DNA of 64,000 nucleotides from Mytilus edulis (taxonomy: Eukaryota). How positions within the stretch are numbered: position 1 is the first letter of the stretch; the number at the start of each line of letters is the position of its first letter. Location of the stretch: assembly GCF_963676685.1 (NCBI RefSeq), contig NC_092345.1, positions 89,218,001 to 89,282,000 of the forward strand. The letters run 5' to 3'. Below are positions 6,826-44,113 of this stretch, piece after piece. The notes under the pieces are model-generated. The model had not been told where the DNA came from, searched no databases, and was given only the letters and a program-made list of their open reading frames with translations. The translations under genes were made by a program, and so were the position numbers.

Positions 6826-9800
6826 TCAAAACGATGAATGTACAGACATATGAACAGATGGATGTTTTGGACGTATACGATAGGGAATCCGCCCATCTGA
6901 AGGATAAATCTTTCGCTCTTCCCTCAGATTATTTGGACGAGGTTTAGTATATTCATTTTCAGTCCACCTTTGTGTAGGTTCGGGGTTTTCCGGTCCAAGA
7001 GGAATCAATAAATATCTACGTTTATGTGCTTTCTTTGGTACCGGTGGTTTTATATTGTTCATATTCATCAGTATTGTTTGTAAAACGTTCAATGCTAGTT
7101 TATAACTTTGATCTTCTTTACAACTTGTCTTTAGTTGCTCTTCAACAAATTGTGAATGCACATTTCCGTCATGAAGTGACGAATGGCTTGAATGGTGAAG
7201 CTGTTTATTCGATGCAGGAATGACATTTTCTTGCTTTTTAATCAAATCCTTATATATTCCAAGCCATTCAACTGTAGGTTTAACATATTTACTTTTAGAT
7301 GTAGGTTTCTTTTGGAAACGGACATCGTGTCTTTCTTTCAAATTTTTACTTTTTGATTTGTTTTGAAGAAGTTGGACTAGCTTGGACTTTTTCCTGGCAT
7401 TATCTTTTCTAAACTGCTGTAATAATGCATTCCACTTGGTGAGTAAATTTTCTTGTGATTTTGAGGTTGAATCAGATATCTTTGAAACGTTTGTAGACTG
7501 TTTATCGGCAACAACCTCTGACTTACCAACAAATGAATGATAATCCAAGTTGTTAAAAGTATCTATATTTTCTTCTGTTGTTGTCTCATATTTGTTTGAC
7601 ACTTCACTATGCATTTCGGGTGAACTTGTGAAGTCAGGAGTGTTCGAGGTGAAAGTCAAATTTGATTCCCGTTTGTTATGAATGACTGTAGTGTTTTGGA
7701 CTGGAATAACTATTTCTGTTTTATTTTCAAATTTAGGTTCTATTTGAAGTGGATATTTATCATTTGTCGCCAAAGAACCCAACCATCGATCCCACGGATT
7801 ACCCTGATCAGTGTTGTCTACAAAAAACAATTCCTTATCAATAATTTTCGATGAATCGTTTGAATGAGTTGAATTTGGACCATTGCTCTGGAGAATATCT
7901 TGTGCATGAGCTTTCACTGTTGTGTTGGTAGATAATAGTTCAAGGCGGTTAAAATTATCGTCCCTAATGTTGTCCCAGTCACGCTGATCTCCTGTCGGCA
8001 TATTGTCATTTTTATTGTCATGAATTTCAATGTTTTCTAAATTCGCAGTTTTATTACGTTCATTTATATCGTAATTACTCGCGGCAGTTGGAAATGGCGT
8101 CGAAAATACTGATTTACTCATCGAAACAGGTTCCTTATTTGTTTCTTCAGCGGTGAATACTGTTGTCGTCCTATAACTCGGCGTAGTTAATTTTGAGTAT
8201 CTCCTGAAAGGGATTGGAATACCAGTTACTTGAACTTCGAAATGTTTGGCAAGTATGTTTGTTTTATTGGAATCATAAGATGTATCATTATGATTGTTTC
8301 TTTTTGTATCATTCATATTGCGTTTAGTAATGCGAATAGCTGTTGCATTTCCGTTCATGTTTTTGTTTTCATTTTCGTTCATGTCTTTGTTTATATTTCC
8401 GTTCATGTCTTTGTTTTTATTTCCGTTCATGTCTTTGTTTCCATATTCATTTATTTCTATGTTTTCATTTCCGTTCATGTCTTTGTTCTTGTTTCCGTTC
8501 ACGTCTTTGTTTTTCAAGTCATGCTTTTGAACCCTTGCTTGTTCGGTCGTAACATTAAAACTTTTATTGGCCATATCTGTTTGTTTATGGGTTGACCCAA
8601 TGATCATGGGTTGTTGAGTTGTACTGATAATTATAGTCTTGTTATCGGAATTTTGACTAGTTATTTCTAGTTTAGACTGATTAATGCGAATAGCTGTTGC
8701 ATTTCTGTTTATGTCTTTGTTTTCATTTCTGTTCATGTCTTTGTTTTCATTTCCGTTCACGTCTTTGTTTTCCAAGTCATGCTTTTGAACCTTTGCTTGT
8801 TCTGTCTTAACATTTAAACGTTTATTGGCCATATCTGTTTGTTTATTGGTTGACCCAATGATCATGGGTTGATGAGTTGTACTGATAATTACAGTCTTGT
8901 TGTCGGAATTTTTACTTGTTACTTCTAGTTTAGGCTGATTGAAATGCAATGAAACAATTTTTCCGATTCTCTTAGAAACTGGTACGGGTTTTCTCGTAAC
9001 ATTTTCTTTATCGATTTTACTTCCTTTTGAAATATTTACTTTTTGTCGTTTTATTGGTTTCTTTTCCAATTCAAACATTGTAGTAAAATTTCGATTACTA
9101 TGATCACTACTTAATAATTTGGGTTTGCTAATGTGTTTGTGAGTTGTTTCGCTTGTCAAATTGTACTCTGACGTTGTGTTTTCCTTTGTCACATGATCAG
9201 TTTTGTTGCTCGCCTTATAATTATCATTTTTTAAGTAGTTTTGTCGTGTTCCATTTTTATATTTTCTTCTCCTGCGTTTTCGCTTTTTAGAGGTAACAAC
9301 ACTTGTATCCAATAAGGCTTTGTTTGTTTTACTTTTTTCCGTTTTTAATGATGGGGATAATCTTTGTATTTTAGATACATTCGTTTCTATCTTATCCAAA
9401 ATGCTGTTTTTGCTTTCTGATCCTTGAGGTAACATAATTGTCTTATTCATACGGCTATCTTTTATGATTTTCCTGTTCATTACCTTGTTTTGAATATGAC
9501 TGACTTCCGTATGATTTTTATGTTTACGTGTTGACAATTTTGAAGACTCAATTTTTTCTTTTCCTGTTATATTATAATTATCGCGGGTTTCCTTCAGTGT
9601 GCTACTGTTGTTTTTATTATGTTTGTGACCATCTGAATAACTATGCTCCTGTTTAATTTCCCGTCGTGGAAAAGTTTTCGTAACTGTACTAATTACTGGA
9701 ATGCTACTTGTTAGTTTATTATATTGCGTTAAATTCCGTGAATCAACTCTTGTTAATCTAAGTAAGCGTGCAACATTCAGTGGTACAGCACTTGTTAATT

Positions 9801-10695
9801 TTCGGTATTTCAATAAGTCATCTATATTTAAATGGTGGGTATCAATAACAGATTTGTCAGAAATTGTATCATCTTTATCTCCAATATCAGTCCTGTGGAA
9901 TGAATTTGTGATCGCATGTTCTACAATTCCGTCAATTTCACTGTTGTTCTGTGTAGATTTAGTCGTTATTTCATACCGTGTTTGTGTTGTCATTAAACGA
10001 ACTTGATTAGGTATAGGCGTTATTTTTGCTGTTCTGACCTTAAACTGTATTTTGTCATCTTTTAATGCACGTTTTGTTGATCTAAAACCTTGGTCAGTTT
10101 TACCAGTTTTTAACAAATTATGGAAATCAGTTTCTTTTGCATTACCTATATAAAAATTGTTCCTCTCCGTTGCTATTACGTTATGTGTTGGGTCACTTCG
10201 AAAATGATTAACGGACCCATCTGATCGTTGTGTTTTCCTAAGAGTATTGTCATTTCCTTGTTTTAAATCGATGCCTTCGTCAACAATATTTAAAGATAAG
10301 GCACTGTTAACTGAAGGCGATGTGGTCTTCCGAGGCGAATTTATCACATATCCTTTTGCAGTTGCGGTTTTATTATAAGTGTTTAGAGAATCCTTTGGGT
10401 GGATGATATTGTTGATGGCGTTAGCCTCTAAATCGATTGCTCCGCCTGGAATGACTCCAGGATTTTTCAAAAGTAACTGTGTAATGGATGATAGTGTATT
10501 TTCTGGTTCACTGTGTAACTCAGTTATAATGTTGTCTTTTCTATCATGTGAAGGAAAATTCGAAAGCAGTTTAGCTGTATCAGATGGGTGAATATCTTCA
10601 CTTGTTCTATTATTTGATGTAACCACAGCGTCATGAAAAGACCAAACCTCATTCAAACCAAACATTAGAATACAGGTAATCAGTACTGCTACCAT
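6826..10695 (-). CDS. Secreted 1289-aa low-complexity N/K/T/S-rich protein (single coding exon); candidate extracellular/shell-matrix or adhesive protein
   Basis: 3.87-kb stop-free ORF in AT-rich DNA. Acceptor tttgcAG at 10715-10714, 18 nt of UTR, then accATGg at 10695 (the ORF-track start is GTG inside the intron). Signal-peptide-like MVAVLITCILMFGLNEVWS, many N-x-S/T sequons, one Cys in the mature region, no recognisable globular domain. Confidence 0.88.
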   Translation of the reverse strand: MVAVLITCILMFGLNEVWSFHDAVVTSNNRTSEDIHPSDTAKLLSNFPSHDRKDNIITELHSEPENTLSSITQLLLKNPGVIPGGAIDLEANAINNIIHPKDSLNTYNKTATAKGYVINSPRKTTSPSVNSALSLNIVDEGIDLKQGNDNTLRKTQRSDGSVNHFRSDPTHNVIATERNNFYIGNAKETDFHNLLKTGKTDQGFRSTKRALKDDKIQFKVRTAKITPIPNQVRLMTTQTRYEITTKSTQNNSEIDGIVEHAITNSFHRTDIGDKDDTISDKSVIDTHHLNIDDLLKYRKLTSAVPLNVARLLRLTRVDSRNLTQYNKLTSSIPVISTVTKTFPRREIKQEHSYSDGHKHNKNNSSTLKETRDNYNITGKEKIESSKLSTRKHKNHTEVSHIQNKVMNRKIIKDSRMNKTIMLPQGSESKNSILDKIETNVSKIQRLSPSLKTEKSKTNKALLDTSVVTSKKRKRRRRKYKNGTRQNYLKNDNYKASNKTDHVTKENTTSEYNLTSETTHKHISKPKLLSSDHSNRNFTTMFELEKKPIKRQKVNISKGSKIDKENVTRKPVPVSKRIGKIVSLHFNQPKLEVTSKNSDNKTVIISTTHQPMIIGSTNKQTDMANKRLNVKTEQAKVQKHDLENKDVNGNENKDMNRNENKDINRNATAIRINQSKLEITSQNSDNKTIIISTTQQPMIIGSTHKQTDMANKSFNVTTEQARVQKHDLKNKDVNGNKNKDMNGNENIEINEYGNKDMNGNKNKDMNGNINKDMNENENKNMNGNATAIRITKRNMNDTKRNNHNDTSYDSNKTNILAKHFEVQVTGIPIPFRRYSKLTTPSYRTTTVFTAEETNKEPVSMSKSVFSTPFPTAASNYDINERNKTANLENIEIHDNKNDNMPTGDQRDWDNIRDDNFNRLELLSTNTTVKAHAQDILQSNGPNSTHSNDSSKIIDKELFFVDNTDQGNPWDRWLGSLATNDKYPLQIEPKFENKTEIVIPVQNTTVIHNKRESNLTFTSNTPDFTSSPEMHSEVSNKYETTTEENIDTFNNLDYHSFVGKSEVVADKQSTNVSKISDSTSKSQENLLTKWNALLQQFRKDNARKKSKLVQLLQNKSKSKNLKERHDVRFQKKPTSKSKYVKPTVEWLGIYKDLIKKQENVIPASNKQLHHSSHSSLHDGNVHSQFVEEQLKTSCKEDQSYKLALNVLQTILMNMNNIKPPVPKKAHKRRYLLIPLGPENPEPTQRWTENEYTKPRPNNLREERKIYPSDGRIPYRIRPKHPSVHMSVHSSF
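8328..8939 (-). repeat. Intragenic duplication (86 aa and 118 aa copies) containing 24-bp NKDMNGNE-type octapeptide repeats
   Basis: NQPKLEVTSKNSDNKT...NATAIRI occurs twice; 3 octapeptides in the first copy and 7 in the second. Confidence 0.9.
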
Positions 10696-10939
10696 GGTTA
10701 TATACAGTATTATCTGCAAACACACATATCTATCATAAAATTATTATATTGTTATCAAGTATATTCTTTGTGATATATATAAATAAGAAGATGCGTATGA
10801 TTGCCAATGAGATAAATATCCATTAAAGTTCAAATGAAGTAGATGTAAACAAATATATCAACATTAAATGCAAGTCTTTAACATTTTGATATTACTGTAT
10901 TTATTTTCGTTACGGAAAAAGTTGTTTGCTGTATAAAAT

Positions 10940-11385
10940 GAGCCTGTCATTCCATAGTGGTCGTTAGTTGTCTGTTTTTTTTTCTATTTGTCTGCCATAA
11001 TCGTTTTACCATTAATAAGATTATTTCAAAAACGCAATTTGTTTTTCTATTTTTAGAATTGTTTCAAATTTTGTTATCCTGGGGCCTTTTATCGCTTTCT
11101 TTATGGAATAAGCTTTGGCTCATTATTGAAGAATGTACGGCGACCTATAGTTATAAACATCATTGTCCTTTCATGCTTGGACTTTATTGGTTAAGTGTCT
11201 CATTGGCAGTCATACCAGATGTGTTTTGCTAGGGTTCGTGTTGTTTATTCTTTAGTTTTCTATGTTGTATCATGTGTACTATTGTTTTTCTGTGTGTCTT
11301 TTTCATTTTTAGCCATGGCGTTGTCAGTTTGTTTTAGATTTATGAGTTTGACTGTCCCTTTGGTATCTTCCGTCCCTCCTTTGTT
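10940..11385 (+). mobile_element. Two adjacent retroelement 3'-end fragments in the inferred intron 1 of the 1289-aa gene
   Basis: ...gtctcattggcagtcataccagat end shared with copies at 13150, 15640, 36630, 39100, 39655, 47605 and 57110. Confidence 0.6.
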
Positions 11386-11473
11386 TGTTTAACTGTTTCA
11401 TTTTCTAATTTAATCAATGTAAAAACACCCCTCTTAAAATAAATTACAAAACAAATGATTTTTTTAAACTTAC

Positions 11474-11610
11474 CTTAATTTCATTTTTCAAATTCATATA
11501 AAGTTATTTCCTTTAATAAATTACACTTGTTCATCCATGTTTACCTATCTTTATTGTGAAAATAACACATTTCAGTGCTAATGTTGGTAAAAACAATACT
11601 ACATATAATA
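11474..11610 (-). promoter_or_regulatory. Candidate non-coding first exon and TATA-like promoter of the 1289-aa gene
   Basis: Consensus donor AAG|GTAAGT at 11474/11473, ~760 bp upstream of the acceptor; TATA-like TATTATAT near 11603-11610. Confidence 0.5.
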
Positions 11611-14600
11611 GCCTATGGAACACGAAGATTGTTTTACAGAAAATTGGTATTCTATGTTAACAAATGACATGTGTGGTATTTACAGTTATTACACTATATC
11701 TGTGGCGTAAATGGCTAGATTTAAGACAATTATTTCATAAAAACAACAATTCAGTTTGTAACAATAAGTTAATAATATTAATTTGTCTCTGTATTTGTAT
11801 ATTCTCAAAAAAAGTAATAAGCAAACCGTCTAAATATTAGCATCTACCAGTCCTTCGAAAGCGTCGGTTTCTTTTTGAAAAAAAACAAAAGTGTTCTGCA
11901 ATAAAAAATAAAGCGTTTAAAATGAAAACATTGACATCATAAGCAATTGGTCGAGTAAATAATAAAGCATAAAGACATAAAATACCAAATGTTCTTCTTT
12001 ATTATTCTTTCTAAAAACCAATAGTTTACCTGAAAGGTTTTTTGCTGTTAATCAAATAAGAAAATGAAAATAACACTTAATTACTTTGGTGCATCCGAAA
12101 ACACCTTTTTTGGATTTACCTTCATTAGAAAGCTGAAACCCAAAACTATGAAAGCAAAGAATTTATAAGACCAAAACCGTAGAAGAGTTTAATGATTAAA
12201 AGGTATATAGAAGATAACAAAATTCATCCGAGGACGATTTTTCCTGAAAAGTTGAAACCTTAGTTGAAACCTTGGAGATGCTTATATTTAGATAATTTGC
12301 TTATAACATTTTGAAAATATACAATGGCGTTTGATTTTGCCATTTGATTAGGGACTTTACTTTTTGAAATTTCCTCGGAGTTCAGTATTGTTGTGTTTAC
12401 CTTTTTTCATTTGAATTTATTAATCTATCTACGAAGAATTTACTATTTTTTTTTTAAATCATGCCAGTACTAAAACATTGATTACTGAGTTGATATGATT
12501 TCCTCATGAACTAACAGTCCAACAAAAACAAACTTTTGTTTATAGGGTAAATATAAATTTTTGCCACCGCTTATTCTACGTCCCCTAGCATCTCTCTATC
12601 ATACTTCTGTAAACCTATCACATATTTAACCTTACTCAACAAATTTGAAATAAACTGTTTGCTTTATTTTCCTTTAAGGGTAACTGAATACGGTAAATTT
12701 CCACACTCCACGGATAAGGGTGTGACAAGCGAGTAGTTCTAATATATAAATTAGTCTTAACACTAGTTAGTGATGGTCAGTGATCTTTACAATTTCTTTT
12801 TTCAAGTTAATTTTAATGTTTCGATCTCGTATATTTGATCGATTTTGTTGAATCTTTTCGCTTTTTGTCTAACTTCAGACCAATTAAGGGTTTCAATGCG
12901 AGCTTTGCCAATCCGATGTTATTAAAACAATGTAATGGTCTTTCAGACAGTAGATCTGTAATAAATGACTAATTTGTGAGATGTAAATTTGATATGACAG
13001 TAACACTAGGTTTAGATAAATATTTCCTAAAAAAGTCACCCTTCTTGTAAACAATGTCTAAAATCTGGTAAACAAAATTGACTTCGTTTGATTTAATCTA
13101 TCAATAGAATGTCGAGTGTGTTGCTACTACATACCTATCTGATATGAACAATTGAAGACCGTATTTCGACCTATAATGGTTTAATTTTACAAATTATGAC
13201 TTGGATGGAGAGTTGTCTGATTGGCACTCATACCACATCTTCTTAAATCTATAAACACGGATATTGCATCGCTTAAATATGAAAACAATTATTATCTTAT
13301 TCGTGCCCTCAAACGCAAATAAAGTATTTATGAACAAAAACTCAAACACATATCTAAGGGAAACAGCTCGCCTAGACGAGTGCAGCAAAGTTTTATTATC
13401 AAATAATTCGACTGTCCTCATATCACTTTGCCAGCACACAAGGGTACTTCACTGCACTAAGACGGAGCTTCGAATGGTCAAGCTATGAAAATGTATTTTC
13501 AATGTTAACTTTTACCGCGAATGACCAGTCCGTGCTATCATACAAAGAACTTTAAACTCTTAACTTTGTTAATGTGACTTATTGTTATGCTAAAATAATT
13601 TGAATAGATTGTAAACATAAACACATGTTCCCAATATAGCAACAAACCCATGTGCTATCGATAGTTAATAAATACAATAAGAAAAGGTGAGTCGACGGGG
13701 AATGCTGTCGTGTATGAATCACTACATTTGAGACTAATATCCACTGGCGAGAATCGAACAATGAGATGGCAGCAAATAAACCTATGGTAACTTTAGAAGA
13801 ACGAAAAATGTTGCCAGCAAATTTACACATCGAGACAAAGTAACAATCAACCAATACAAGATTTATCATTTGTTACTTTCAACCAATATACCTCATAACT
13901 TGACTGAAGAAGTTATTCAGTTTAAAGACGGATAATGTAATTTTAACTATCATTATAATACAATTTTGATGAATATGATATATCAACGAAGCTATCAGTC
14001 TTGGTAGTTTCGTGTTTTGTACAATTAATAATTTTCTGTTTAGCTTTTTCTGTATACCTGATTGTATGTTTGTGATTCATTTTGTAGTATTGTTGTTTGT
14101 TTTCGGCTAGATATTGTTGATTGCCCGTTTGATATCAACTCACTCTCACAACACTTATGTTGTAAGGAAAAGATTCAGAATACCTGTCATATTGAATATG
14201 CTTAGAATAATTAACAGTGAATTAGTATTTGGTTTATAATTTCTCAGACTTTCAACGCAAAAATAGTTTTTAAAAAATCGAGATGTTTGATAGAACTTTA
14301 AATTTTTTCAGGTAAGGTAGTGGATAATAATTTGGATTGGAAATTAAATCAATTCCAAATGACCTTTATAATAACTATGCGTCATACATGTACGCTAACC
14401 GGCGTGTTCACAAAGTACCAACAGGCATAGTTTAACATGAAAACAGATGTGAATAAAAACTTCATATCATAAATTTTGTTAGTCAGAAGCATTTTCCTGG
14501 ATTTCACTTAAGTGGGAATGCTCAAATCTACTTATCAATTTAGAGCTTTTGCTGTATGTGTAGTCGTATGAGCCTATATACATTCAGACCAAAAGCTTAA

Positions 14601-14999
14601 ATAGTAGAATTGTTATAGGAAAATTCCTTCTAAATTTAAATATAGGCACATTAGTTAATAAGGATTATCGTTGAGCTTGTTGTAAAAATAATTTCAATAC
14701 CGGTACCTCCCACAAATATAATGGATACCTAATCATTTTTATATGAATAGGTATCTGAATTTGATTAATGTGCATGGTAGCTTTATGATATAAAAAAGGT
14801 CGTTGAAAACTTTCGAGATGCACAAACAAAAAATCTTATTCAAACGGAAAACAATTGTCAAAATATTATGTTTCTCAAATTCTATGTAGATTTCAAACTG
14901 AGATGAAGTGGTATATGTCCTCATTTACTAACAACACAAGCATGTTTTACTTTACAATGCAAGATATTTAAGCTTCATTCTAAACAGACATATTTGTTA

Positions 15000-16370
15000 A
15001 GCCTCAGGCTCACCGCGATCTAAAATAAATTCAGATCGTGGTGAGGTCGCGGTGTGAGCGGCATGAAAATGTAAATTTTCGTTGCTTTCACGATACTACT
15101 ACGTCCTCATTACGCTTCTACAACGCTACGGCTGCGATTATACCACGTTCTCACCGCGCTTTTTCTGCGACCTCACTACGCTTATCAAGATCTTTCTACG
15201 CTCATCACGTTCTCACTACGATCATACAACAAGTTATCCGATTGCAACACGATCTTACCACGCTTCTACTGCGATTATAGCACGTTCTTACTACGATTAT
15301 ACTACGTTCATACCACGATTATACTACGTTCTCAGCAATAACGTCAGTATCGTGTTCCATATCAAAACAGTTCCATTTCCTTCTATTTCTGATTAATACG
15401 TAGATTTTTCGGAAACAATACAGTCATAACACCAAAATCTACTAGAGCACGTGGGCGTAGTGGAAGGAGTTGATGTAAAGGTAGAGGGAGCTCTGATAGT
15501 AATGAAACCGAATCAAGCAGAGATGTCAGACCGAGCAATCCTACCTAAATTACAACCTATTGCTGGTCCATGAAGCTCAAATGACGATATTTCAGTGAAC
15601 GATAGCAGAGATGACACAGATTTGTCAATAGATTTCAATAGATATAGGAAGATGTGGTATGAGTGCCAATGAGACAACTCTCCATCCAAGTAACAATTAA
15701 TAAAAGTAAACTATTATAGGCTAAGGTACGACTTTCAACACGGAGCCTTGGCTCACACCGAACAGCAAGCTATAAAGGGCCCAATAATTACTAGTGTAAA
15801 ACCATTCAAACGGGAAAACTAACGCTTGGTTGAGTCGTTAGAGGAAATAAACAAGAAGTCCTTATTACCTACAAACAAACAAAACCTGGAGAGATTTAAT
15901 ATATTTTATGTGAAAATGACAATGAGAATGATGGTCGTAGTATGGACATAGTCAGGTCGTAAGAAGAGCGTGATGAGGACGGAAAAGGCGTGCTAGAATT
16001 GTACTATGGTCGTGAACAGCGTGGTATAGTTGTAGTGGAAGCGTAGTTTGGTTGCAGTGAGAATGTGATGGTCGTAGTGAGGTCGTAATAACGTAGCTGT
16101 GAGATCGTAGCGCAGTCTCTCCGAATAGAATCACGCTCTCGCTACGATGGTACAGCGACCTTTACGATCTTACTACGATCTTAGTGCGCTCTACTGCGAC
16201 CTGATTTCACCACGACCGACACCCCGATTGTTTTGAACATGTTAAAAGTTGGCTAAGCTCATCACGATCTTGAAGACCTTACTGCGATCTACACGATCGT
16301 GCTACGATCATCAAAATTTGCATTTTCTTTACAGATCGTAGTGCGATCGTGGCCTAATGGGACTGCGGTA
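15000..16370. mobile_element. Non-autonomous TIR DNA transposon with many (c/t)acgat subrepeats; nested retroelement fragment at 15640-15825
   Basis: Blocks of acgat/atcgt motifs at both ends in both orientations; degenerate TIRs with TAA-like flanks (PIF/Harbinger-like, tentative). Confidence 0.6.
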
Positions 16371-18090
16371 TAAATACGCATTATTTTTTTCATCGCTACA
16401 GTAGACCAGATACATTTATACTAAATATGTGACCTCTCAGACAAAATCAGATATAAAATACGAAATAGCTATAAAGATTTTTCTGACTAAATGATTCATA
16501 AAGTGGTACAAAAAATGGGTTTGAATTGGTGAAAGTACGAGTTGATAAAAATACGGTTTGGTCATACTTCGCCGTTAAGTGCCAAGTTTCAGGAATCACT
16601 GAAGTCTGATATGTAGTTCTTAGATCCGATTAACATTTAATAATATGGACGGACGCAACACTCATGGTAGGATGGATATAAACAGAATATTACCTCCTTT
16701 TGACCGGAGGTATAATAAAATATAATATCTTTATACTTGAATGACACCCAAAGTTCAATCTTTTTAGAAAAGAAGACATGGTTTCATTGCCTGTGAGACA
16801 ACTTTCCACCAGAAACAAAAGGACGATGCCATTTGGGAACTTGGAAAGAAGCTGTAAATTTACATTAGATTAAGCGCTGAATTGATTTTTATTTTATATT
16901 ATAATAAGTTAATTTGAATCAATAAATATTCTTGTCAACTGTAACCTAAGATTTGTAAAATAAGTCGTGTAAGTAATATAATGAGTTGTCTTTCTTCTGT
17001 CAGTTGGATGATATTGAATTCTTGTATTTTCTGAAAAGTCCTCAATAAATAAAGGCAATAGTAGTATACCGCTGTTCGAAAGTTATAATTGAGAGAAAAC
17101 AAATCCGGGGAACAAACTAAAACTGAGAGAAACACATGAATTTTAAGAGGAAAACAATGAAAAAACAGAAAACCAAAAGACAATGCAACACATCAGAAAC
17201 GAACTTTAACATATCAACTGTCATTTTCCTGACATTTTCAGAAACAATGGTGAGTTGAACGTGGTCGTGTGGCTAGCCAAACCTCGCGCTTTTATGGCAA
17301 TGTTAAAAAGAAAAATACATTACGCATCACCGTATTACCTAAGCTGCCTTCAATAATTCTAAATTGTTTAATTGAACTTATCAATAAGGCTGTTCTGTAA
17401 CTTTTCAGATCGACAACGCAAGACATGCGACTCTTTCCAGAGTTAGATATAAAGAGCAAAATACTTTGTACGCTATAATCATTTTAATGTAACTAAAACT
17501 GTATACTTTGCGATACGCATAAGGCCATCTCAGTTACAATTTAATGTTTATATCCAACTATTACTTTTTCCATTTAAAGTACCATCATTTCAGTTATTTT
17601 GAATCATGAAGACAGTCAAACCACTATACAAAACGAATTACAACAATATCAGAAATACATACAATGCAAATGCTAAGAGAGGTTTTTCTCAACCTTTTTA
17701 AGATCAATTCCAATCACGCAACATCAAATTATATTTTATTATTCACAAACAATTTAGATACAATTAGATAAATACCAACGTTATAACAATACACAGTTTG
17801 ACAAATATTAGATGTAGTATTTTCAAAACGCTCAATAACTTTGTCGTTATCGTATACTTTCTGCAGGTAGTTTATTTTGTAAAAACAAACTACGAACTGA
17901 CGACTTCCATCAGCCACGTCGTAGAAAGTATTCAACAAGAAATATAGAACTCTTCTATAAACGAAAAGATCCAAACCATTCGAAATATTTGCGTTATACG
18001 CAACTTATCGATAAAAGGCCCATTGAGCATTAATCTTTTTTTTTGATTGCCTTTCATTTTACCACTTTTTAAGGTATCAAATGTTAATTA

Positions 18091-19295
18091 TCACGTGAAG
18101 TAGTAGTCAATTAAAGGATACATCATAAAAAAGTCCTGCATTGGTGTTCTAGTCGGTGGATAGTAGGGATGTTGCTGATGCTGAGTTGACCCAGGTTGAT
18201 ATCTTTGAGGCGGAGCATAGGTTGATCCTTCAACCTCTATTCCTTCATATTCGGGAGCTTCAGTTTGTGGAGGAGGTTTCGGTGTTGTTGTTGTAGTTGT
18301 TGTAGTAGTTGGTTTAGGAGTGGGTTTTGGTGTAACAGGTCTAGTGTAGTAAACTGGAGGTTGATAGACTGGTGGTTGATAGACACCTCGATGGTATTGA
18401 GGTTGATATATATATCTCTGTTGTTGATGCGGGTATTGAGGAACAGGCGAAAATCCCACTTGATGTGGCTGTTGTTGCTGAAGATTGGCGGGTTGTGTTT
18501 GAATAGGCATTGCTTGTTGTTGTTGCTGCAGATTGACGGGTTGTGTTTGAATAGGAATTAGTTGTTGTTGTTGCTGCAGATTGACGGGTTGTGTTTGAAT
18601 AGGCATTGGTTGTTGTTGTTGCTGCAGATTGACGGGTTGTGTTTGAATAGGCATTGGTTGTTGCTGTTGCTGCAGATTGACGGGTTGTGTTTGAATAGGA
18701 ATTGGTTGTTGCTGCTGCTGCATAAATAGTTGCTGTTGCTGAGTAGAAACCATCGTTTGTACGGTTTTATTTGGAGAGAATTGTGTTTGAGTAATGGATT
18801 GAATGGGTTGATTAACAGGAAACAATGGTTGATTGACTTGTTGAATTTGATTTGCTTGAGCCGGTTGTACTGATTGGTTTACTGTTTGTTGTGGTTGAAC
18901 AACTTGTTGCGCCGGGTTAATTTGAACAGGTGCTTGTTGTCCTTGTGGTTGAAGTAAGATTTGTTGTGGTTGAACGGCCTGTTGCAGTTGGGGTAACAAA
19001 TTTACGTTATTAGTAAGTGAACTTTGAACAGTAAAATCCTGCACTGGTTGTTGGACTATTTCAGGCCTTGCGTTTGCCGGAATTTGTTGATTAGAACCAG
19101 GAACAACCTGGAACGGATTACTTGCTGAAAGAGCATTACCGGTCACTGGTCCTTGTGGTACCATTTGCGGCTGATTTATCATGTGAGGTGGTATTGGAGG
19201 TCTTTTGTATACTTGTTGGTTTGCAGGTGGGGCTGCAGGTGGGGCTTGTGGTGGGGCCTGTCCTGAAGGTGGAGTTTGGTAATGTCTTGGTGGAC
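18091..19295 (-). CDS. Terminal coding exon (~400 aa) of a Gln/Pro-rich protein with a Thr tract and Tyr-rich C-terminus
   Basis: Acceptor ttttgtaattccAG at 19297-19296, phase 1 (xGT CCA CCA = G-P-P). Open to TGA at 18093-18091; AATAAA at 17740-17735. The ORF-track start is TTG and the exon has no signal peptide. Confidence 0.82.
18470..18720 (-). repeat. Five 48-bp coding repeats (QQQQQPMPIQTQPVNL)
   Basis: Visible in both DNA and translation. Confidence 0.92.
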
Positions 19296-20416
19296 CTGGA
19301 ATTACAAAACAATACATTAAGAATAACGTTTTCAATGGAATAATTGTAGTATATCATCGTTCCCAAGTAGTAACTGCGCGAAATCATAAAAGTTAAGTAA
19401 TTATATTGAGAACATTGTCCTATTCAGTATACTTTGTGAGCTCGGAAGCTTCTCAGCATGAAAATGGGCGGAGTTTTTATTTCAAATTTAAAAATCAGTT
19501 CAAGGTCATATATGCAATTAAAATAAAAATAAACATTATTTGAAAACAAATCCCTAGATTCCCTTGAAAATTTGTGATTAATTGTGAATAAAGAATAGAC
19601 ATCAGAAAAGAATGAACATGATCATCTTAATATCTAACTCTAAGCTATAAGTTGTAGAAGGTTAATATCATTTGTGAAACATTTTGTTAATCTGTAGGGA
19701 ATGATGGTTTTAGGATGATACTGTTAGTTGACAAAGCATTAACAAGCAGCTCAAAAGGAACTTTATGATCGCGAACCTGATCTCAAATACAAAAATGAAG
19801 AATGATCGCTAATCAACTGCTTAAAGCAAAATCAGTGGGTTTGGTAATCAGAAGATATTGGCATTTTTGAACATTATTTTGAATTTATTTTTCAAAGGTT
19901 GAAAGTTTTTAATTTTACCAATCGTCATTACAAATTGCTTTTAGCAACAAACATTATAAAGAGGACCTATATAAACGTAAAGAGAGTAAGTAATACACAA
20001 AGAAGGTGGTAAATATAGACATACCTATGCAGCTTGTTCTCATCATTCAACTTACGTTAAACCATTTAAATACATAATTGTATTAATACTGAACTTATTG
20101 TATCAGAATGATTCTTAACGATTGAAGTTATAACGTTCAATCATAACATTTTTGTCATGTGTTAGCAAATGTTTGTGATATTATTACATGAGAAGAAAAT
20201 AATCAGCTATGCTTTTTTCATGTTTTTAACAAAAACAGGTGTTTGATTTGTATTGTATTTGTTCCATTCTTACATTATAAAATTAAGCTCGCTTTTTGCT
20301 CTTTATATTTCATCGAGTGACGTTTTCTTTGTAAAGCTGCACGATTGGCACGAAGGCATACACTAAGTTTTACACAGACTTGACTAATGAAATAATGTTA
20401 AGTGGAGGAGTATTAA

Positions 20417-21100
20417 AGGGACACTAGCTACGAGATATATAAAAAATCTAAAGTTTGATTTTTTTCTGTTCAATCAATAATGAAAGTGAAATAGTGAAAT
20501 AAAAATTCGCTTTTTGCAGCCAAAAAGGTTCAATTTTGTCAAATTACGCTAAGAAACATTGATAATTAGTAATTCACTTGCAAGTGAATGAGTCGACCTC
20601 TTTAAATCCGTATTCATGTGAACTTCAATTTAACCCCTATCTAGAGACTGACAACGCATGCATTGTACGTGTACTGGTTATTTAAAGAAAAAGAATGTCA
20701 ACAGTGAAAGTGAAACTATGGTAAATCATTTGATTACTAATTCGATGCACATAAAATCATTCTTATACGGTTAAAAACAATGAGAAACATCTATTTTTAA
20801 TCTATAAAATAAAATCAAACAGACCTATAAAAATCCAATTGCACGTGTTGGTTTAATCTATTCATATCTTTATTTATGTTTACATCGCTTATATGGTCAT
20901 CTGAGGTCAAATCGGTAGGTAATTAGATGGCGTCTGGACTTAAATACACACGAAACGAACCTATATATTATCTACCCCATGCTCTGTAAACTGTTTATTT
21001 TAGACTTTTGATAGTTTGGATAAATGTTTTACATTGTTATAAATCAAATATGAGAATTTGAGTCAAATCGGTGACCATGAATTTGACAGCTAGTGCGCCT
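20417..21100. mobile_element. MITE with TTAA TSD (Kolobok-like)
   Basis: TTAA|AGGGACACTAGCT ... AGCTAGTGCGCCT|TTAA. Confidence 0.85.
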
Positions 21101-22121
21101 TTAATATATAATCATTTGTACACAATATATCAGAAATTATTTTAATTAATATAAATATAAACACTTTAATACCAACAATATAATTATATATAAAATAAAA
21201 TCTCAAATAGAAATAGAAATAAGATAAAATAATATCATTATAACATACATGTAAAAATGCAGTAATATTTTGTTCATATAAGACATGTTTTAAAGTAATG
21301 ACAAAATTAATAGAGTCGTTACATTAACGCATTGTGATCTATTTTACATGACGGAAATACAAATGTATGAATATTAACATAGTCATAGATTGTCAAAACG
21401 TACAAATACAAATAACGTAAAAAAACATCAGATTGTCAAAAGTTACAAATATGATATGTAATAATCCACACCTTACACAATAGAACTTTAAGTTTATACT
21501 GCAAGTTTGGCACGATGGGATAAAAATAATATTAATTTAAATGCGCAAGAAGGAAATAAAAAACAAATACGAAATGATGTGTAATTGAGACATTTTCAAT
21601 CGATCAATACTTGAGTCGTAACATAAAATATTCTTTAGTTATACAATGGTTCACATATTAATGACATACACATGTTTACTGAAAATGATGTCTCGCAACA
21701 TTCAATTGAAAACGGAATTCAAACTATTTCACTAAATGTATCAATTTCTTTTTACACGTGCGATGTGTTTTAAAGATAAATAACCTGTTTACTACTTTAA
21801 CACACCAGAAATAAATAAAGCTGACAGAGATAACCCTACACACATTAATTATCTGTATATGTGGTCTATATGACATTGAAGAAAAATGTTTTTACAAAAT
21901 ACCTCTGAAAAATATTCCTCATTTGTGTAAGGTAAGACTGATAACATTGAAGCCATCATTTATAAATATGCAAAACGTACAAATCAGAAGTCATTTGAAT
22001 GTCCCTTCATTCTTTTACAGATTAAAAAAAACAAATCGATTATCTTATTTTTATAAAAAATTACAAATATAGTGATTTCTAGATACGTCTGTGAATAAGC
22101 TTGTAATAACCTGTGTCTATT

Positions 22122-25100
22122 TTACTTGCTGTCTTTTGTACTAAAGCTTTTAATAAAACCCGGAGCCAAATATGTTAACATCGCTTCATTAGGTATGATA
22201 ATTACAGGATTTGAAGATCTGCTAACGTCATGTGGATACCATTCACCATGACTAGCATGAGCATCTAATGTCTTAGCATTAGAATAAATACTTTTTATTC
22301 TAGCCATAATGTTGCTGTACAAATTTGCAATATTTGCATGAACCGCTTTTGTTTTCGTAGCAGTTGTATATATATCTTTCATCTTTACTTGTAACCTCTG
22401 TGATGTATTCATACCGCTTGCTATATTCTCGGTTCTCGTTTCGTTCGTGAAGACAATACTCGAGTTCAGCAAGTTTGGTTTTGAATGGTTCATTTCAAAA
22501 AACGTTTTAGGTAAATTTTCTTTATTCGTTTCTAGACGACTAGCATTCATGTGGTCCTTCAATTTAGGTTCATAGTTTGTCATATTTTCAACTAATAAAT
22601 GTAGAATTGTACTATTTTCATTGTTAATCGCGTGTACACCGGCAGAATTATGTTCTTTGATAATTGAATTCCATCTATTTGGTATATTCATCTTTGATAA
22701 CTTATTCTTATTGCCTGTAATTATGCTTGATTTAACTTCTTGACTCTTAACTGTAGCTGTATCCGATATTCCATGTGATATAATTGCTTTCGAAGTATCA
22801 AATTTTGGAATGACATTACCAATAGTCTGATAAACGGATGGAGCATTTGTTACACTATTAGTTTCTGTTGTTACTGTTATCAAAGGTTGAAAAGAGTCAT
22901 TGACTGTGGTTTGACTTTGAACAGTCGGATTAGTAGTAAGATTATCTTCCTTTGATAATGGGTTCATTCGCTGTGAGAGTTTGGTAATGTCATTCATTGT
23001 AGAGTTTGATAACAATGAACTATCGTTTAAGATTGACAGGTGACTAATATTAGACTCATTATGTTGTTGCGACAATGTGGCTACAGATTTGTTTAATGAA
23101 GATAACATAGTAGTGTTTATTCTTGCTAAATTGTTACCAGTCTCACTTATTTTGATATTGTTCAAATACGGAGGCATTTGATTTTCAAATTTGGTAATGT
23201 TCACGGAACTGTCAGTTGTAGTTAACATTGGTCCTGTTATTAAAACATTTGTTTTGTCTCCATCCATTAGTAATTTATCACGGAGTGTGATTGTATCTGA
23301 CTTTTGAAGTCGTAATTTAATGTCATCTGTATTATTGTTGAAAAACACATCCTGAATTTCAGTGACATTTGCTACAACAACATGAAGAAGTGAAATTTCA
23401 TTTCCAGTATCAAAATGCTTTAATGGAACGCTCTGTGTTGTATTCATTTTCAATTGTTTTTCTGAATTTGTTTGGTTTTTCGGTTGTAACGTATCGTTTG
23501 TGTTATTACGTATTATTAGAGGTGATAAAACGAACCAACTTGGTTGATTCTTAGTCCTCAATTCATCGTTTTTACCTTTTTGTCCTTCAGAATGTAACAA
23601 ACTATTTTCTAACATTGACAGAACGTTCATTTGTCTACCAATACCACTATTATATGACCCTTTCTTGGGATTATAAGGCTCTTTCCGGGAAACTGTAAAT
23701 AAATTTGTCTTTTGTGTCAGCTCTTTACCGTTGAGATTGACCATGTGCTTAATTGGCTGATATATTGGCGTGTGTACCACGTCATGTTTTATCTGTTGAC
23801 CGTAAGTATTGAACGGTTTGCTATTCACTACATATGTCTCACTATTATAAGGTGTAGTAAAATCAACAGATGAAAATGATTTATGAATAAATGGTTGTTG
23901 AATTTTATCCAAGCGGTTGACATTCTGATTCATGAGGTTTATGTAATTGTTCTTAATATCCTTTTGTTGATTATCTTTGCCTTTTGGTGCATCATTTTTA
24001 CCATTGTGTCTAAAACTAAATATTGGCATATTTTCAAACAGTTTATTAAGCTGTTCGATTACTACTTTTCTATGCGCATTGATTGAAGTCGCATCTGATA
24101 TGGTATTGGGATTATCGAAACTATTAGCTGTTGAAACTAGATTTTTAGAAATGTTTTTTGAATTGTGCAATTTGGACAGCTTCATTTCTCTATTGTTAGG
24201 CGAAGGAGTAGGAGATAATGGATTTATTCTATGAATGTTAGAATTTATGCTAGGCGCTTGCGTTGACGCATGCACAGAGTTTGATCTAAAAAAAGTTTGA
24301 CCGTTATAACTGACCATGCCAGTATGATTAATACTACTTTGTATATCTATTCTACTTGTTCCCATCACCGAGGTATCAGTAATAGTGTTACGCTTGTCTA
24401 TATCAGCATTCTTATTACCTTGTGGGAACGCCTGAGAATGTGTAGCCGTAAACACAAATTTTTGCGCATTGTTAGGATTGTTAGAAGACACTACTGTATG
24501 ATATTGAAAATCAGAACCTTGATTAAGTGGTTGATTCCCATTTGGTGGTGGCTGTCGTTGATTTAGATTTTGTTGAGGATGTGGTTGATTCCCATTTAGA
24601 GGTGGCTGTCGTTGATTTAGATTTTGTTGGGGCTGTGGTTGATTCCCATTTGGTGGTGGCTGTCGTTGATTTAGATTTTGTAGGGGCTGTGGTTTATTCC
24701 CATTTGGTGGTGTCTGTCGTTGATTTAGATTTTGTTGGGGCTGTGGCTGTCGTTGATTTAGATTTTGTTGGGGCTGTGGCTGTCGTTGATTCAGATTTTG
24801 TTGGTGCTGTGGCTGTCGTTGATTCAGATTTTGTTGGGGCTGTGGTTGATTCACATTTGGTGGTGGCTGTCGTTGATTCAGATTTTGTTGGGACTGTGGC
24901 TGATTCACATTTGGTGGTGGCTGTCGTTGATTCACATTTGGTTTGGGCTGTGGCTGTCGTTGGTTCACATTTGGTGGTGGTTGTGGTTGATACACATTTG
25001 GTGGTGGTTGTGGTTGATTTGGTTTGGAATATGGTTGCTTTACATTCAATGGTGGTTGAGGTTGTTGTTGGTACAAATTTGGAGGTGGTCGTGGTTGGTT

Positions 25101-25985
25101 GAAATTTGGAGGTGGCTGTGGTTGGTTCATATTTGAAGGTGGCTGTGGTTGGTTTACATTAGAACGTGACATAGGAATGTTTCTATTTGGCAGTGGTTTC
25201 GAAGATGTCCTTTGAAACTGTTGATTCGTTTGTCGCCTTTTTTGTTGCTGTTGACGCTGATTTATACTGTAGGAATGTAATGGTACCGCCTGCATATGCT
25301 TTGGTTGTTGATTTCGGTTCATACTAAAAGAATGTGATGGTACCGTCTTCCTGGGCTTTGGTTTTTGATTTTGGTTTATTCTGTTAGAATGTGAAGGTTC
25401 CGTTTGCGACGGACTCTGTTTTTGATTTTGGTTGATACTTTTAGTATGGGATAATTCCGCCTGCCTTGGCCTCGGATTTTGATTTTGATTCATACTGTTA
25501 GGCTGTGGTTGTTTCGTCTGCCTTGGTCGTGGTTGTTGGTTTTGATTCATACTGTTAGAATGTGATGTTTTCGTCTGCCTGGGCCGTGGCTGTTGGTTTT
25601 GATTCATACTGTTAGAATGTGATGGTTTCTTCTGCCTAGGCTGAGGTTGTTGATTAACTTCGTTTGGCTGTGATGGTATATTGTTTTTATGTGACATTTG
25701 CGACTGAAAATTTGCTCCATTTTTAGTTGCAGATTTGAAAGAAAAACTCTTCATTCCCGGTTTTGAACCAATAACTATTCTTTGTGGTATATTTGAACCA
25801 ACATTCCCAGAAATTTGTCTTGGCACATTTGATCTTTCGCTTCTATATATTTGATTTGGTCTATTTGAACTAGCACTAAATGAAGCATTATTTTCATTTC
25901 TATTTGAATGTTTTTGTGTGCCAAAACGTGCAGAAGAGCAAACTGTTATTAAATATCCTAATATGAGCAGTTGTATATATTCCAT
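22122..25985 (-). CDS. Secreted 1287-aa protein: Q/P/N-rich repetitive N-half, N/T/S-rich glycosylatable C-half (single coding exon)
   Basis: 3.86-kb ORF. Acceptor ttatcttcAG at 26008-26007, 21 nt, then acaATGg at 25985. Signal-peptide-like MEYIQLLILGYLITVCSSA; no Cys in the mature part. Confidence 0.88.
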   Translation of the reverse strand: MEYIQLLILGYLITVCSSARFGTQKHSNRNENNASFSASSNRPNQIYRSERSNVPRQISGNVGSNIPQRIVIGSKPGMKSFSFKSATKNGANFQSQMSHKNNIPSQPNEVNQQPQPRQKKPSHSNSMNQNQQPRPRQTKTSHSNSMNQNQQPRPRQTKQPQPNSMNQNQNPRPRQAELSHTKSINQNQKQSPSQTEPSHSNRINQNQKPKPRKTVPSHSFSMNRNQQPKHMQAVPLHSYSINQRQQQQKRRQTNQQFQRTSSKPLPNRNIPMSRSNVNQPQPPSNMNQPQPPPNFNQPRPPPNLYQQQPQPPLNVKQPYSKPNQPQPPPNVYQPQPPPNVNQRQPQPKPNVNQRQPPPNVNQPQSQQNLNQRQPPPNVNQPQPQQNLNQRQPQHQQNLNQRQPQPQQNLNQRQPQPQQNLNQRQTPPNGNKPQPLQNLNQRQPPPNGNQPQPQQNLNQRQPPLNGNQPHPQQNLNQRQPPPNGNQPLNQGSDFQYHTVVSSNNPNNAQKFVFTATHSQAFPQGNKNADIDKRNTITDTSVMGTSRIDIQSSINHTGMVSYNGQTFFRSNSVHASTQAPSINSNIHRINPLSPTPSPNNREMKLSKLHNSKNISKNLVSTANSFDNPNTISDATSINAHRKVVIEQLNKLFENMPIFSFRHNGKNDAPKGKDNQQKDIKNNYINLMNQNVNRLDKIQQPFIHKSFSSVDFTTPYNSETYVVNSKPFNTYGQQIKHDVVHTPIYQPIKHMVNLNGKELTQKTNLFTVSRKEPYNPKKGSYNSGIGRQMNVLSMLENSLLHSEGQKGKNDELRTKNQPSWFVLSPLIIRNNTNDTLQPKNQTNSEKQLKMNTTQSVPLKHFDTGNEISLLHVVVANVTEIQDVFFNNNTDDIKLRLQKSDTITLRDKLLMDGDKTNVLITGPMLTTTDSSVNITKFENQMPPYLNNIKISETGNNLARINTTMLSSLNKSVATLSQQHNESNISHLSILNDSSLLSNSTMNDITKLSQRMNPLSKEDNLTTNPTVQSQTTVNDSFQPLITVTTETNSVTNAPSVYQTIGNVIPKFDTSKAIISHGISDTATVKSQEVKSSIITGNKNKLSKMNIPNRWNSIIKEHNSAGVHAINNENSTILHLLVENMTNYEPKLKDHMNASRLETNKENLPKTFFEMNHSKPNLLNSSIVFTNETRTENIASGMNTSQRLQVKMKDIYTTATKTKAVHANIANLYSNIMARIKSIYSNAKTLDAHASHGEWYPHDVSRSSNPVIIIPNEAMLTYLAPGFIKSFSTKDSK
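24525..25660 (-). repeat. Coding tandem repeats: ~7 x 19-aa SHSNSMNQNQQPRPRQTK-type units, then NQRQPPPNVNQPQPQQNL-type units
   Basis: Visible in translation and as gttgatt/ggctgt-rich periodic DNA. Confidence 0.9.
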
Positions 25986-26749
25986 TGTCACTTTCACAGG
26001 TGAGATCTGAAGATAACAAAAATACATAGATTAAAAAATTGTTTAAATGTTTTCCTAGTGAGAGTTTCCACCCAAATACCCCATGTCATACATGGCTTCA
26101 TAGAATAAATAAATAATATCTACCCCACCGAAAAACCCACAGAATACAACAACCATTAACAGTATAAAATGCAGCAATCAATACATTCTAGCCTTGGGCA
26201 AGTACGATTTAAAATAGCTGGCGAGTTTAAGTTAGAATTAACTAATAAATAGAATTTTTTGTGTATGTTGTTTAAATGCATACATCTTAATCATCTTTAT
26301 GAGTTATTTTTAACCATAAACAATAATTATATATCTATACCACTAGTGTTGGACAGAAGTTGTATGAATATGTATTGACATGTTTACAATGTCAATTAAT
26401 GTTGTTAGTCATTATTTAGTCAATAGTTTATTAATGATGCTCCTAAATATAGGTTCTCATATTTGACATGAAAAATGAAACGTATTTACATAAAATATCA
26501 ATTTGATAATCATTTGAATTTAAATCTTTTTTGTATTTCAGTCGATAAAAAACATTGCCTTAACCTTATCAAATCAGAAAAAACTTTAAAGCAATGTAAA
26601 TCATCCAAAATCAATGACACAGAGAGCACCAAAAACATAGTTATTACGGAATGTGCATTACAATGATATACTAGTATGAAAAAAATATACGAAGAAGGTC
26701 TGGTACTAGACAATTGGGCAATAGCATTCACCAAAGCACTTTTGAAAAG

Positions 26750-40911: not shown

Positions 40912-42844
40912 ATTTTCTCCACAGCCGGGAATTTCTTCAATTAGCTCCTACACTGTCAACATTTAACTGACTAATCTTAATCTTCAACCGAAATTTTTGA
41001 AACGTTGATTTTGTTAAATTGCTTTGTCTCATTTTCCCCATAAATTGCACTTTCGTTAGCGATAGACACATATTTAAGCCGGGTTAATAGTTTACAGAAG
41101 CAGATCGGAATCAGTTATGACGTAGACAGTAATCATTCTAATCGTAATCATGTTCATTGACCATAACGACGATGAAAGCACATCATATAATGACGTTTCG
41201 ACATCATATAATGAAGTAAACCTAACCACATAATATAAGATTACAAGCACATAATATAATGACACAACCACATCATATAAAGATGTTTGCACGTAATATA
41301 AGGATATGTACACACCATATAAGTATACTTGCACAGCATATAAGTATATGTGCACAGCATATAAGTATATGTGCACAGCATATAATGATCTTTCAACATA
41401 ATATAAGTACATTTGCACATCATATAAGAATGTTTGCACATCATATAAGTATATTTGCACATCATATAAGTATATTTGCATATCATATAAGTATATATGC
41501 ACATCATATAAGTATGTTTGCACATAATATAATGATATTTGCACATCATATAAGGATATTTGCACATCATATAAGGATATTTGCACATCATATAAGGATA
41601 TTTGCACATCATATAAGGATATTTGCACATCATATACAGGTGTTTACACATCATATAATGACAAGTGCACATCATATAAAGGTAAATGCACATCATATAA
41701 TGAAAATGGTCATAATAAGACAGTGTTGGCGTTCCATACAACGCAATCATAGGTTTGAACGTTGTTTAAAATTTAGACTTGTTTATTTTCTTTTAGTATA
41801 TATACTTGTCAGATTTTTTTTCACTTCTTGGTTAATCACATTCAGGCGAAATTATAAATAATACCATGACCTTTTTGACTTACCACTGTAAATAAGTGGT
41901 TAAACCATAAATCTTATGAATTAATACGTCTGATATTTTAAAAGACAGAAGTCATTATTTCTTGGGAAGTAAATAAGAAAAAAACTATTAGTATTTACAA
42001 AATGAGAAAAAAATGCTTGGAATAGTTTAGGACATGCAAGTAATTACATGTATAGTTTTGTGGGATTAAGAACCCATAATATTTTACAGTTCATCCATAC
42101 ATTATTACTTACTCAAACAAAGTATAGTTTTTTCCTCCCCATCAATTATGATAATTTTCCCCTGCCACTTTCCATATAACGTAATACAGTTCAAAAAGAA
42201 TGATATTACACAAAAATTGTGCGAATGGAAATTGTTTGTGTGCACTTGAACTGTGAATTTTATCAAGTTGTCACATATATACATTATATTTTTATGTCCA
42301 TAAATGATCACTTTTCACGTAATTCGGACTGTCATCAACTGTTGTAAAACACATCATACCATAAAAATTGATATGTATTACAAGACATTACATAAAACAT
42401 TTGGTCTTGCCAAATAACCTTAAGGATGTATAAATAACAAGTCACAACAACATCATACGCTTGTCTGTCTCAAAAAACAAAACAAAACTATGCGCTAAAG
42501 ATTTGAAATGATTTCTTGTGATTTGAAATGATATCGTGTTCTTCCTTTCAAAAAAAGTAATAATTAATATACATTTGTGCTCTTGAAAAATCAAATTGAA
42601 TGTGTATCTTGGATTGTCACTGTTAAAGGTATTCATACTCATTCTATACATGAGAGATTTATAAAATATACCTTCACTGACGTATAAGTCTATACATAAG
42701 GGGATTTATATAATATACCTTCACATTTGTATAAGTGCTTATTTAATGTTGAAAACCAAATGTTCGAATTTACTCGATGCCGTTCGGACTTTTCTGTGAT
42801 TGGGTTGCGGTCCCATTGACGTATGCATCAAATTGCCTTGTAAC

Positions 42845-43757: not shown

Positions 43758-44113
43758 AACAGCTATATGAAAATATGGAAATGTAGCATGATTGCCAATG
43801 AAACAGCTATAGGAAAATATGGAAATGTAGCATGATTGCCAATGAAACAGCTATAGGAAAATATGGAAATGTAGCATGATTGCCAATAAAACAGCTATAG
43901 GAAAATATGGAAATGTAGCATGATTGCCAATGAAACAGCTATAGGAAAATATGGAAATGTAGCATGATTGCCAATGAAACAGCTATAGGAAAATATGGAA
44001 ATGTAGCATGATTGCCAATGAAACAGCTATAGGAAAATATGGAAATGTAGCATGATTGCCAATGAAACAGCTATAGGAAAATATGGAAATGTAGCATGAT
44101 TGCCAATGAAACA
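43758..44113. repeat. 44-bp tandem repeat, ~8 near-perfect copies
   Basis: Unit aaacagctataggaaaatatggaaatgtagcatgattgccaatg. Confidence 0.95.

Follow-up and report, generated by a model that had tools for sequence, protein, structure and literature searches.

How many genes does a run of very long open exons represent, and what are their products? The question is raised by a 64,000-nucleotide stretch of the Mytilus edulis genome (contig NC_092345.1, positions 89,218,001 to 89,282,000; hereafter the window, whose coordinates are used throughout). The original prediction, made from the letters alone, read these exons as three co-oriented genes for secreted disordered proteins and proposed an undescribed, co-regulated cluster for a biomaterial such as shell, byssus or periostracum. 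We find that the locus is two transcribed, Mytilus-conserved genes, not three. The exon taken for the middle gene is spliced to a donor within the upstream giant exon. We call the downstream giant-exon gene gene 1 and the upstream gene, including the middle exon, gene 3.

In the window, an AT-rich piece of eukaryotic DNA, stop-free frames of at least 300 amino acids (aa) number exactly three, all on the minus strand (6826-10740, 18091-19353 and 22122-26030), in agreement with the three long exons first described. The probability of a 400-codon open frame by chance is ~3e-12 per start here, so frames of such length are not chance.

A splice switch in gene 3

Sequencing runs matching the locus numbered 23, of which 17 are RNA or guessed RNA. 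We examined five of the 17 (X1, X2, X3, X4 and X6), together with X18, one of six unlabelled large runs, which behaves as DNA. The body of gene 3 is composed of the following features:

24518..26006, minus strand: common front part, 489 aa, with acceptor at 26006, ATG at 25985, predicted signal peptide and basic repeat block; RNA-type contigs from X1, X2, X3, X4 and X6
24510..24518, minus strand: internal non-consensus 5' splice donor (AG/GT, phase 1) inside the giant exon; contig joints
22122..24517, minus strand: long-isoform tail, 797 aa with 24 N-glycosylation sequons, whose sequence forms the start of the intron in the short isoform; read-through contigs
21118..22121, minus strand: long-isoform 3' untranslated region (UTR); contigs from X1 (21118-22411) and X3 (21212-22488)
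18091..19295, minus strand: alternative terminal exon, the middle gene of the original prediction, 400 aa with poly-Gln repeats; RNA-type joints

The evidence for this structure is a joint between 24518 and 19295. In contigs from X1, X2 and X4 it skips 5222 nt and falls on GT..AG on the minus strand, with a pyrimidine-rich acceptor; loose ends at 24518 in X2 and X6 carry letters of the middle exon, which is the same joint. It is present in four of the five RNA-type runs, in three of four studies and in two organisms, and it is in frame, giving an 890-aa product. Phase-1 AG/GT sites are few, accounting for only 3 of the 151 GT dinucleotides in the giant exon. In the DNA run X18, one identical contig (22650-24556) passes the donor unbranched, and the joint is not among the loose ends listed for this one DNA run. 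The RNA-type runs stop at the intron upstream of 26006, which X18 covers as well. Because the joint occurs in RNA-type runs while X18 passes the donor, splicing fits better than a deletion allele.

The long form is real alongside the spliced one. A contig from X3 (24450-24563) bridges the donor unspliced, and contigs from X1, X3 and X6 run through the stop at 22122 into the 3' UTR. M. coruscus keeps the 797-codon tail open, at ~63-78% identity per 100 aa, and the tail is also open and conserved in a European Nucleotide Archive (ENA) record. Among the indels listed, all 4 of the coding ones are multiples of three, as against 3 of 11 in the long 3' UTR. Both spliced and read-through transcripts of gene 3 exist, as in a composite terminal exon. 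With the middle exon joined to 24518, gene 3 thus yields two forms on a common 489-aa front: an 890-aa Gln/Pro-rich protein and a 1287-aa protein with an Asn/Ser/Thr-rich tail. Candidate ATTAAA signals lie at 21170, 21146 and 21105, near the end of the X1 contig, although contigs cannot reveal transcript ends.

It could be argued that there is no isoform switch, the long form being mere unspliced pre-mRNA or the joint a genomic deletion allele. The donor at 24518 is weak, X1 has low-depth contigs deeper in the intron (19535-20428), and mussels carry many structural alleles. We nevertheless consider this improbable, given that the tail is held open and conserved in both M. coruscus and the ENA record, that in two organisms the joint falls precisely on GT..AG, and that the DNA contig is unbranched at the donor.

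Two alternative first exons of gene 3 were each recovered from a single run:

42113..42207, minus strand: alternative first exon A, GTAAGT donor, ending in a short in-frame upstream open reading frame (ORF) with a stop; 95-letter loose end in X3 only, mapped exactly
50119..50151, minus strand: 3' part of alternative first exon B, GTACGT donor; 20-letter loose end in X6 only, mapped exactly

An in-frame ATG at 50151 could add 18 aa ahead of the gene 3 signal peptide. We did not use contig cover (X1 and X3 on gene 3, almost none on gene 1) as evidence of co-regulation, nor the fall in contig depth across the donor, seen in X2 and X6 and not in X3, as evidence of any kind, because coverage holes and depths cannot rank the parts of a transcript.

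Other observations concern the same region. The coding stretch 24409-24450, just downstream of the internal donor, has other letters in X3 and X6, an allelic or species difference. High-copy interspersed repeats at ~11250-13240, 15230-15900, 16560-17220 and 20470-21080 collect many unrelated contigs.

Gene 1, protein composition and relatives

The second gene has one giant exon and a small upstream one:

6826..10713, minus strand: giant coding exon with its ATG at 10695, encoding 1289 aa; RNA-type contigs from X2 and X4 overlie it
10639..10695, minus strand: signal peptide of 19 aa, predicted by eye; hydropathy peaks at 2.64 over 19 aa
11474..11497, minus strand: coding end of the upstream exon (8 codons), with a phase-0 GTAAGT donor; both M. 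trossulus models start in this exon
8346..8940, minus strand: internal repeats, 24-nt units and a 258-nt duplication; length differs among Mytilus records
9256..9288, minus strand: polybasic run with two furin-type sites; retained in all four orthologues
7354..7467, minus strand: predicted long helix (aa 1077-1114), partly inside the best-conserved block, aa 1101-1200

The two genes had been credited with one design, and much of it is there: CAG/AT acceptors at 10713 and 26006, followed after 18 and 21 nt by an ATG and a hydrophobic N-terminus. The further idea of a single coding exon behind a non-coding leader is only partly right, since a small upstream exon can add an in-frame ATG in each gene (11497 and 50151). 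The downstream ATGs have the stronger start context and the upstream ones a weak context, so the starts first proposed are probably the main ones; from its upstream ATG, gene 1 could acquire a longer hydrophobic stretch that acts as an uncleaved anchor. The joint 11474-10713 is absent from the RNA contig tables, among the rows listed. A promoter common to genes 1 and 3 is not supported, because the exon that ends at 11474 holds the starts of both M. trossulus models.

The giant proteins are near-equal in length (1289 and 1287 aa) with little similarity, as was noted at the outset. Their alignment score of 135 lies within the range of 100 shuffles (127 +/- 18), so paralogy was rejected and the matching length is no sign of duplication. 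It looks like coincidence.

The lack of recognisable domains, the near absence of Cys and the internal repeats were all borne out. No Pfam family reached its cut-off, an Atlas search for hidden domains gave one match, at 0.76 and under the lead threshold, and Cys numbers 2 in gene 1, 1 in the gene 3 giant exon and 0 in the middle exon. The common 489 aa of gene 3 are basic, with 57% Gln+Asn+Pro after the signal peptide and imperfect repeats of 9-11 residues. The tail of the short isoform is 25% Gln and 18% Pro, and this isoform has only 3 sequons. The long tail and gene 1 are rich in Asn, Ser and Thr (and, in gene 1, Lys), with Ser+Thr at 18-20%; the gene 1 protein has an isoelectric point (pI) of 9.7 and 36 sequons. 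Composition alone would give 26 sequons in gene 1 and 20, against the 24 present, in the long tail. Across the protein blocks Tyr is 1.1-4.5%, Gly 2-3%, Asp+Glu 1-12% and pI 9.2-12. A charge-hydropathy proxy called 70-85% of windows disordered, and both N-termini are hydrophobic with plausible cleavage sites, as judged by hydropathy and inspection. Dibasic pairs number 16 in gene 1, where Lys+Arg make up 16% of residues, and only 1-2 per block in gene 3. Single-sequence AlphaFold2 gave the last 394 aa of gene 1 a mean predicted local distance difference test (pLDDT) score of 46.7, with 82-86 in the helix core; the model contains one confident long helix and no globular domain.

Protein searches point to lineage restriction. 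For gene 1 there were 8 matches among 7994 scored candidates, the named ones, among the matches listed, all being Mytilus: four Mytilus models at 72-98% identity and four ENA or Joint Genome Institute (JGI) proteins at 36-37% identity over 26% of the query. Gene 3 gave 2 matches among 7685 and the middle exon 1 among 7962 longer proteins, again among the matches listed. The last 120 aa of the middle exon found 2 matches in 1.84 billion representatives, one of them an M. edulis model; the other, P0015, was rejected as an unrelated tandem repeat. In this genome each test piece gave one match, a lower bound, as for single-copy genes. We found no solved structure for the proteins and, in these searches, no convincing relative outside Mytilus; they appear to be lineage-restricted.

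Within Mytilus the frames are kept, with 53-98 identical residues per 100-aa block outside repeat and truncated blocks. Gene 1 has orthologues in four named Mytilus records, among which 85-94 of the 100 residues of aa 1101-1200 are identical. The direct orthologues or alleles are CAC5387899/CAC5387900 (M. coruscus), CAG2232433-5 (M. edulis), VDI66326 (M. galloprovincialis) and XP_063421603/4 (M. trossulus). Accession numbers are neighbouring on one contig in M. coruscus and in another M. edulis assembly, which indicates conserved gene order.

These records also qualify the claim that the locus was undescribed: its function is, but the genes themselves already exist as uncharacterised database models. 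None of the models examined has the 890-aa isoform. CAG2232433 treats the alternative last exon as a separate gene, while the M. coruscus model CAC5387899 (P0013) joins that exon near the end of the giant exon, at window position 22160 instead of 24518. Splicing of the M. coruscus kind at 22160 was not seen, contigs from X1, X3 and X6 crossing the site unspliced, although contigs drop rare forms; the first 12 residues of the M. coruscus model have no convincing match in 264 kb. One model is named 'cyclin-dependent kinase DDB_G0292550', a name that no Pfam kinase domain backs.

In sum, the evidence supports the prediction in so far as the genes are real and transcribed and encode lineage-restricted proteins of low complexity that have no domain and a predicted signal peptide. 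The prediction would have been undermined by a lack of transcription or by upstream exons with globular domains; transcripts exist, and we found no such exon.

Possible roles of the products

Mollusc skeletal secretomes commonly contain secreted proteins that are repetitive and of low complexity (PMC4897951). By sequence, the products of both genes are molluscan proteins that contain repetitive low-complexity domains (RLCDs): they have repeats, biased composition, predicted disorder and no globular domain. They resemble the RLCD proteins of PMC4897951 and PMC8194122 in having repeats that are short and imperfect, a biased composition, a signal peptide and disorder as predicted features, restriction to a lineage, and a repeat length that changes between species. 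They differ in that the usual bias described there is Gly/Ala or acidic, and here it is Gln/Pro/Asn or Asn/Lys/Thr/Ser. The single exons are also unusually long at 3.9 kb. Alternative splicing has a counterpart in Lymnaea stagnalis, whose shell-forming candidates are often alternatively spliced (PMC6007483); there, too, splicing alters both the UTRs and what is encoded in secreted proteins, which are often of low complexity. The tissue is known in Lymnaea, and here a donor in a coding exon swaps the whole C-terminal half.

We think it somewhat probable that both proteins are secreted, non-enzymatic parts, structural or gel-forming, of an extracellular material. Their signal peptides would send them into the secretory pathway. 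With the weak donor at 24518 in use, the basic Gln/Pro/Asn block is followed by a second Gln/Pro block, and the resulting 890-aa chain would be likely to associate with itself by polar contacts. If the donor is passed over, translation continues into the 797-aa Asn/Ser/Thr tail, which is likely to be glycosylated and hydrated, and a poly(A) site of its own near 21120 probably ends the mRNA. Competition between the weak donor and the intronic poly(A) site may thus pick the tail. A composite internal/terminal exon with intronic polyadenylation is what separates secreted from membrane IgM, and the logic of splicing versus read-through is similar here; this is an analogy only, the read-through part of gene 3 being 797 codons long. 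Similarly, amelogenin is a Pro/Gln-rich matrix protein, and the bias of the short isoform resembles it by analogy only, no homology being found or expected. Gene 1 would serve as a glycosylated spacer or scaffold, perhaps cut at its polybasic site and perhaps oligomerising through its one long helix. Given a structural role, the mantle, shell or periostracum would be the leading, still tentative, setting; mucus or an epithelial coat comes somewhat behind, a gamete or larval coat is doubtful, and the byssus is the least likely.

Several points weigh against this proposal. Secretion is predicted from hydropathy and inspection, and the longer start of gene 1 could give a membrane anchor. The sequons are only slightly above expectation, so glycosylation is without independent support. 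For the splice switch itself, the joint 24518-19295 is not among the rows listed for X3, its absence from DNA rests on one run and on listed rows, and the RNA runs were guessed as RNA. Searches of shell supplements with six marker words each, in data that are EST-limited (expressed sequence tags) or from another genus, did not recover the marker peptides: they are absent from five files of PMC4517812 (M. galloprovincialis shell, peptides and EST translations), one archive of PMC5854119 (shell of four bivalves, M. edulis content unconfirmed) and four files of PMC6641155 (Perna shell). They are absent too from 9 of the 16 files of PMC3896809 (M. edulis mantle). As to the literature, a full-text search with four marker peptides and two accessions, its reach ending short of subscription papers, bioRxiv supplements and byssus proteomes, returned no paper; three module words brought up irrelevant papers only, and a topic search of titles and abstracts found no paper on these genes.

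The cluster first proposed, a co-regulated set of shell, periostracum or byssus matrix genes, is possible but doubtful. The sequence type fits the repetitive low-complexity class of molluscs, and further domain-poor low-complexity ORFs lie within ~107 kb. The genes are only two, however, and unrelated in sequence, and none of the four shell or mantle supplements searched holds a marker peptide. Nor does their composition, with its low Tyr and Gly and basic pI, match the established families. Byssal DOPA (3,4-dihydroxyphenylalanine) foot proteins have high Tyr and Lys/Gly-rich repeats, and here Tyr is 1.1-4.5% and Gly 2-3%. Byssal preCol collagens have a Gly-X-Y collagen domain, for which Gly is too low and no Pfam collagen match was found. 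Acidic Asp-rich shell proteins are strongly acidic, unlike blocks with a pI of 9.2-12 and 1-12% Asp+Glu, and the Gly/Tyr-rich repeats of shematrin and KRMP are absent by composition. On the other side, the Perna shell tables of PMC6641155 include orphan Thr/Lys/Pro/Gln-rich proteins, and, more weakly, an otherwise unrelated Gly/Met/Gln-rich Perna shell protein in them has the six-residue acidic-Tyr word of an ORF to the left of the window, one match among many term tests.

A little less probable is a mucin-like nature, with gene 1 and the long isoform as glycoproteins of the surface and gene 1 possibly staying membrane-anchored by an uncleaved N-terminal helix. Their Ser+Thr content (18-20%) and 24-36 sequons suggest as much, and the upstream in-frame ATG gives gene 1 a basic N-terminus and a long hydrophobic stretch, although its context is weak and that of the downstream ATG strong. 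Gel-forming mucins have VWD and Cys-rich domains around arrays rich in Pro, Thr and Ser (PTS); here there are 0-2 Cys, no such domain and no long PTS tandem array, and the short isoform, rich in Gln and Pro, has just 3 sequons. Least likely, and slightly behind even the absence of a switch, is that gene 1 is a precursor cut into bioactive peptides: its polybasic furin-type site is conserved and its dibasic pairs number 16, but these pairs are expected from its Lys+Arg content, we saw no short peptide that recurs between cleavage sites, and gene 3 has only 1-2 dibasic pairs per block.

What is new in the corrected structure is a splice switch between two unrelated low-complexity tails. Because the database models examined split or mis-join gene 3, spectra from shell, mucus and byssus may never have met the 890-aa isoform, and the corrected structure makes a search against it immediately possible. 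If tissue and material were assigned, the locus would offer a clean natural case of splicing that swaps a physical block of a secreted polymer. Mussel biomaterials are known mainly for DOPA, collagen and Gly-rich proteins, and Gln/Pro chemistry would be added to them; short of such an assignment, this is another orphan secreted low-complexity locus, of a kind frequent in molluscs.

Surroundings of the locus

We examined 200 kb around the window. About 7.6 kb to its left lies a 598-aa single-exon ORF rich in Gln, Pro and Tyr (L004:2397-4193, plus strand), convergent with gene 1. It has an acceptor, a short leader, a hydrophobic N-terminus and a sub-threshold Pfam match to New_glue, and its exact sequence is absent from the protein collection. 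One segment of the alternative last exon of gene 3 recurs in it:

18202..18351, minus strand: Pro-Lys-Pro / Thr-run / acidic-Tyr module, common to the left-neighbour ORF

The module scored 115 against 64.5 +/- 9.5, a value that none of 300 full shuffles and 2 of 300 local ones reached, the segments having first been picked by eye. Likeness over the whole proteins stayed within the shuffle range (14 of 100; BLASTP E 0.3), and likeness of the C-termini failed (64 of 300 shuffles). A weak look-alike of the module (E 0.19) is found on another chromosome (G000:C5:71656079-71657962, minus strand), in a 627-aa Pro/Gln/Tyr-rich frame that opens with a Thr-run and an acidic stretch.

To the right of the window are exons that look terminal and carry Asn/Arg-rich repeats (L014:3297-4679, L017:2102-2803 and L017:3743-5248, all on the minus strand). 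Two paralogous exons on this side have a common helical-repeat domain at 39% identity (AlphaFold2 pLDDT 71), for which we found no match in Pfam, Atlas or the PDB, the last searched by sequence and by fold. With these further low-complexity ORFs, a loose cluster of orphan low-complexity genes around the locus is plausible. The much larger idea is speculative and, taken whole, unlikely: a Mytilus-specific materials cluster of more than 100 kb with at least four orphan low-complexity genes, in which a regulated switch between a hydrated glycosylated and a self-assembling Gln/Pro polymer would tune a biomaterial by tissue or stage, and the Thr-run/acidic-Tyr module would be an undescribed assembly motif of a new structural-protein family.

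Duplicated C1q exons occur 40-48 kb to the left of the window (L008:2007-2519, with a near-copy ~8 kb further right), and exons at L007:6083-8185 probably encode a membrane protein whose stalk is Ser/Thr-rich. Inside the window, a 21-bp tandem array is present in two copies of opposite orientation (33705-34441 and 41092-41861), with His/Ile- or Tyr-rich frames on both strands; lying in the first intron of gene 3, these arrays are probably non-coding repeats. Minisatellite arrays at 52923-54838, 26754-27299, 43758-44117 and 59278-59937 include 43 copies of a 44-bp unit. Finally, broken frames at 60491-62339 on the plus strand resemble, by eye, pieces of the reverse transcriptase of a non-LTR (long terminal repeat) retrotransposon.

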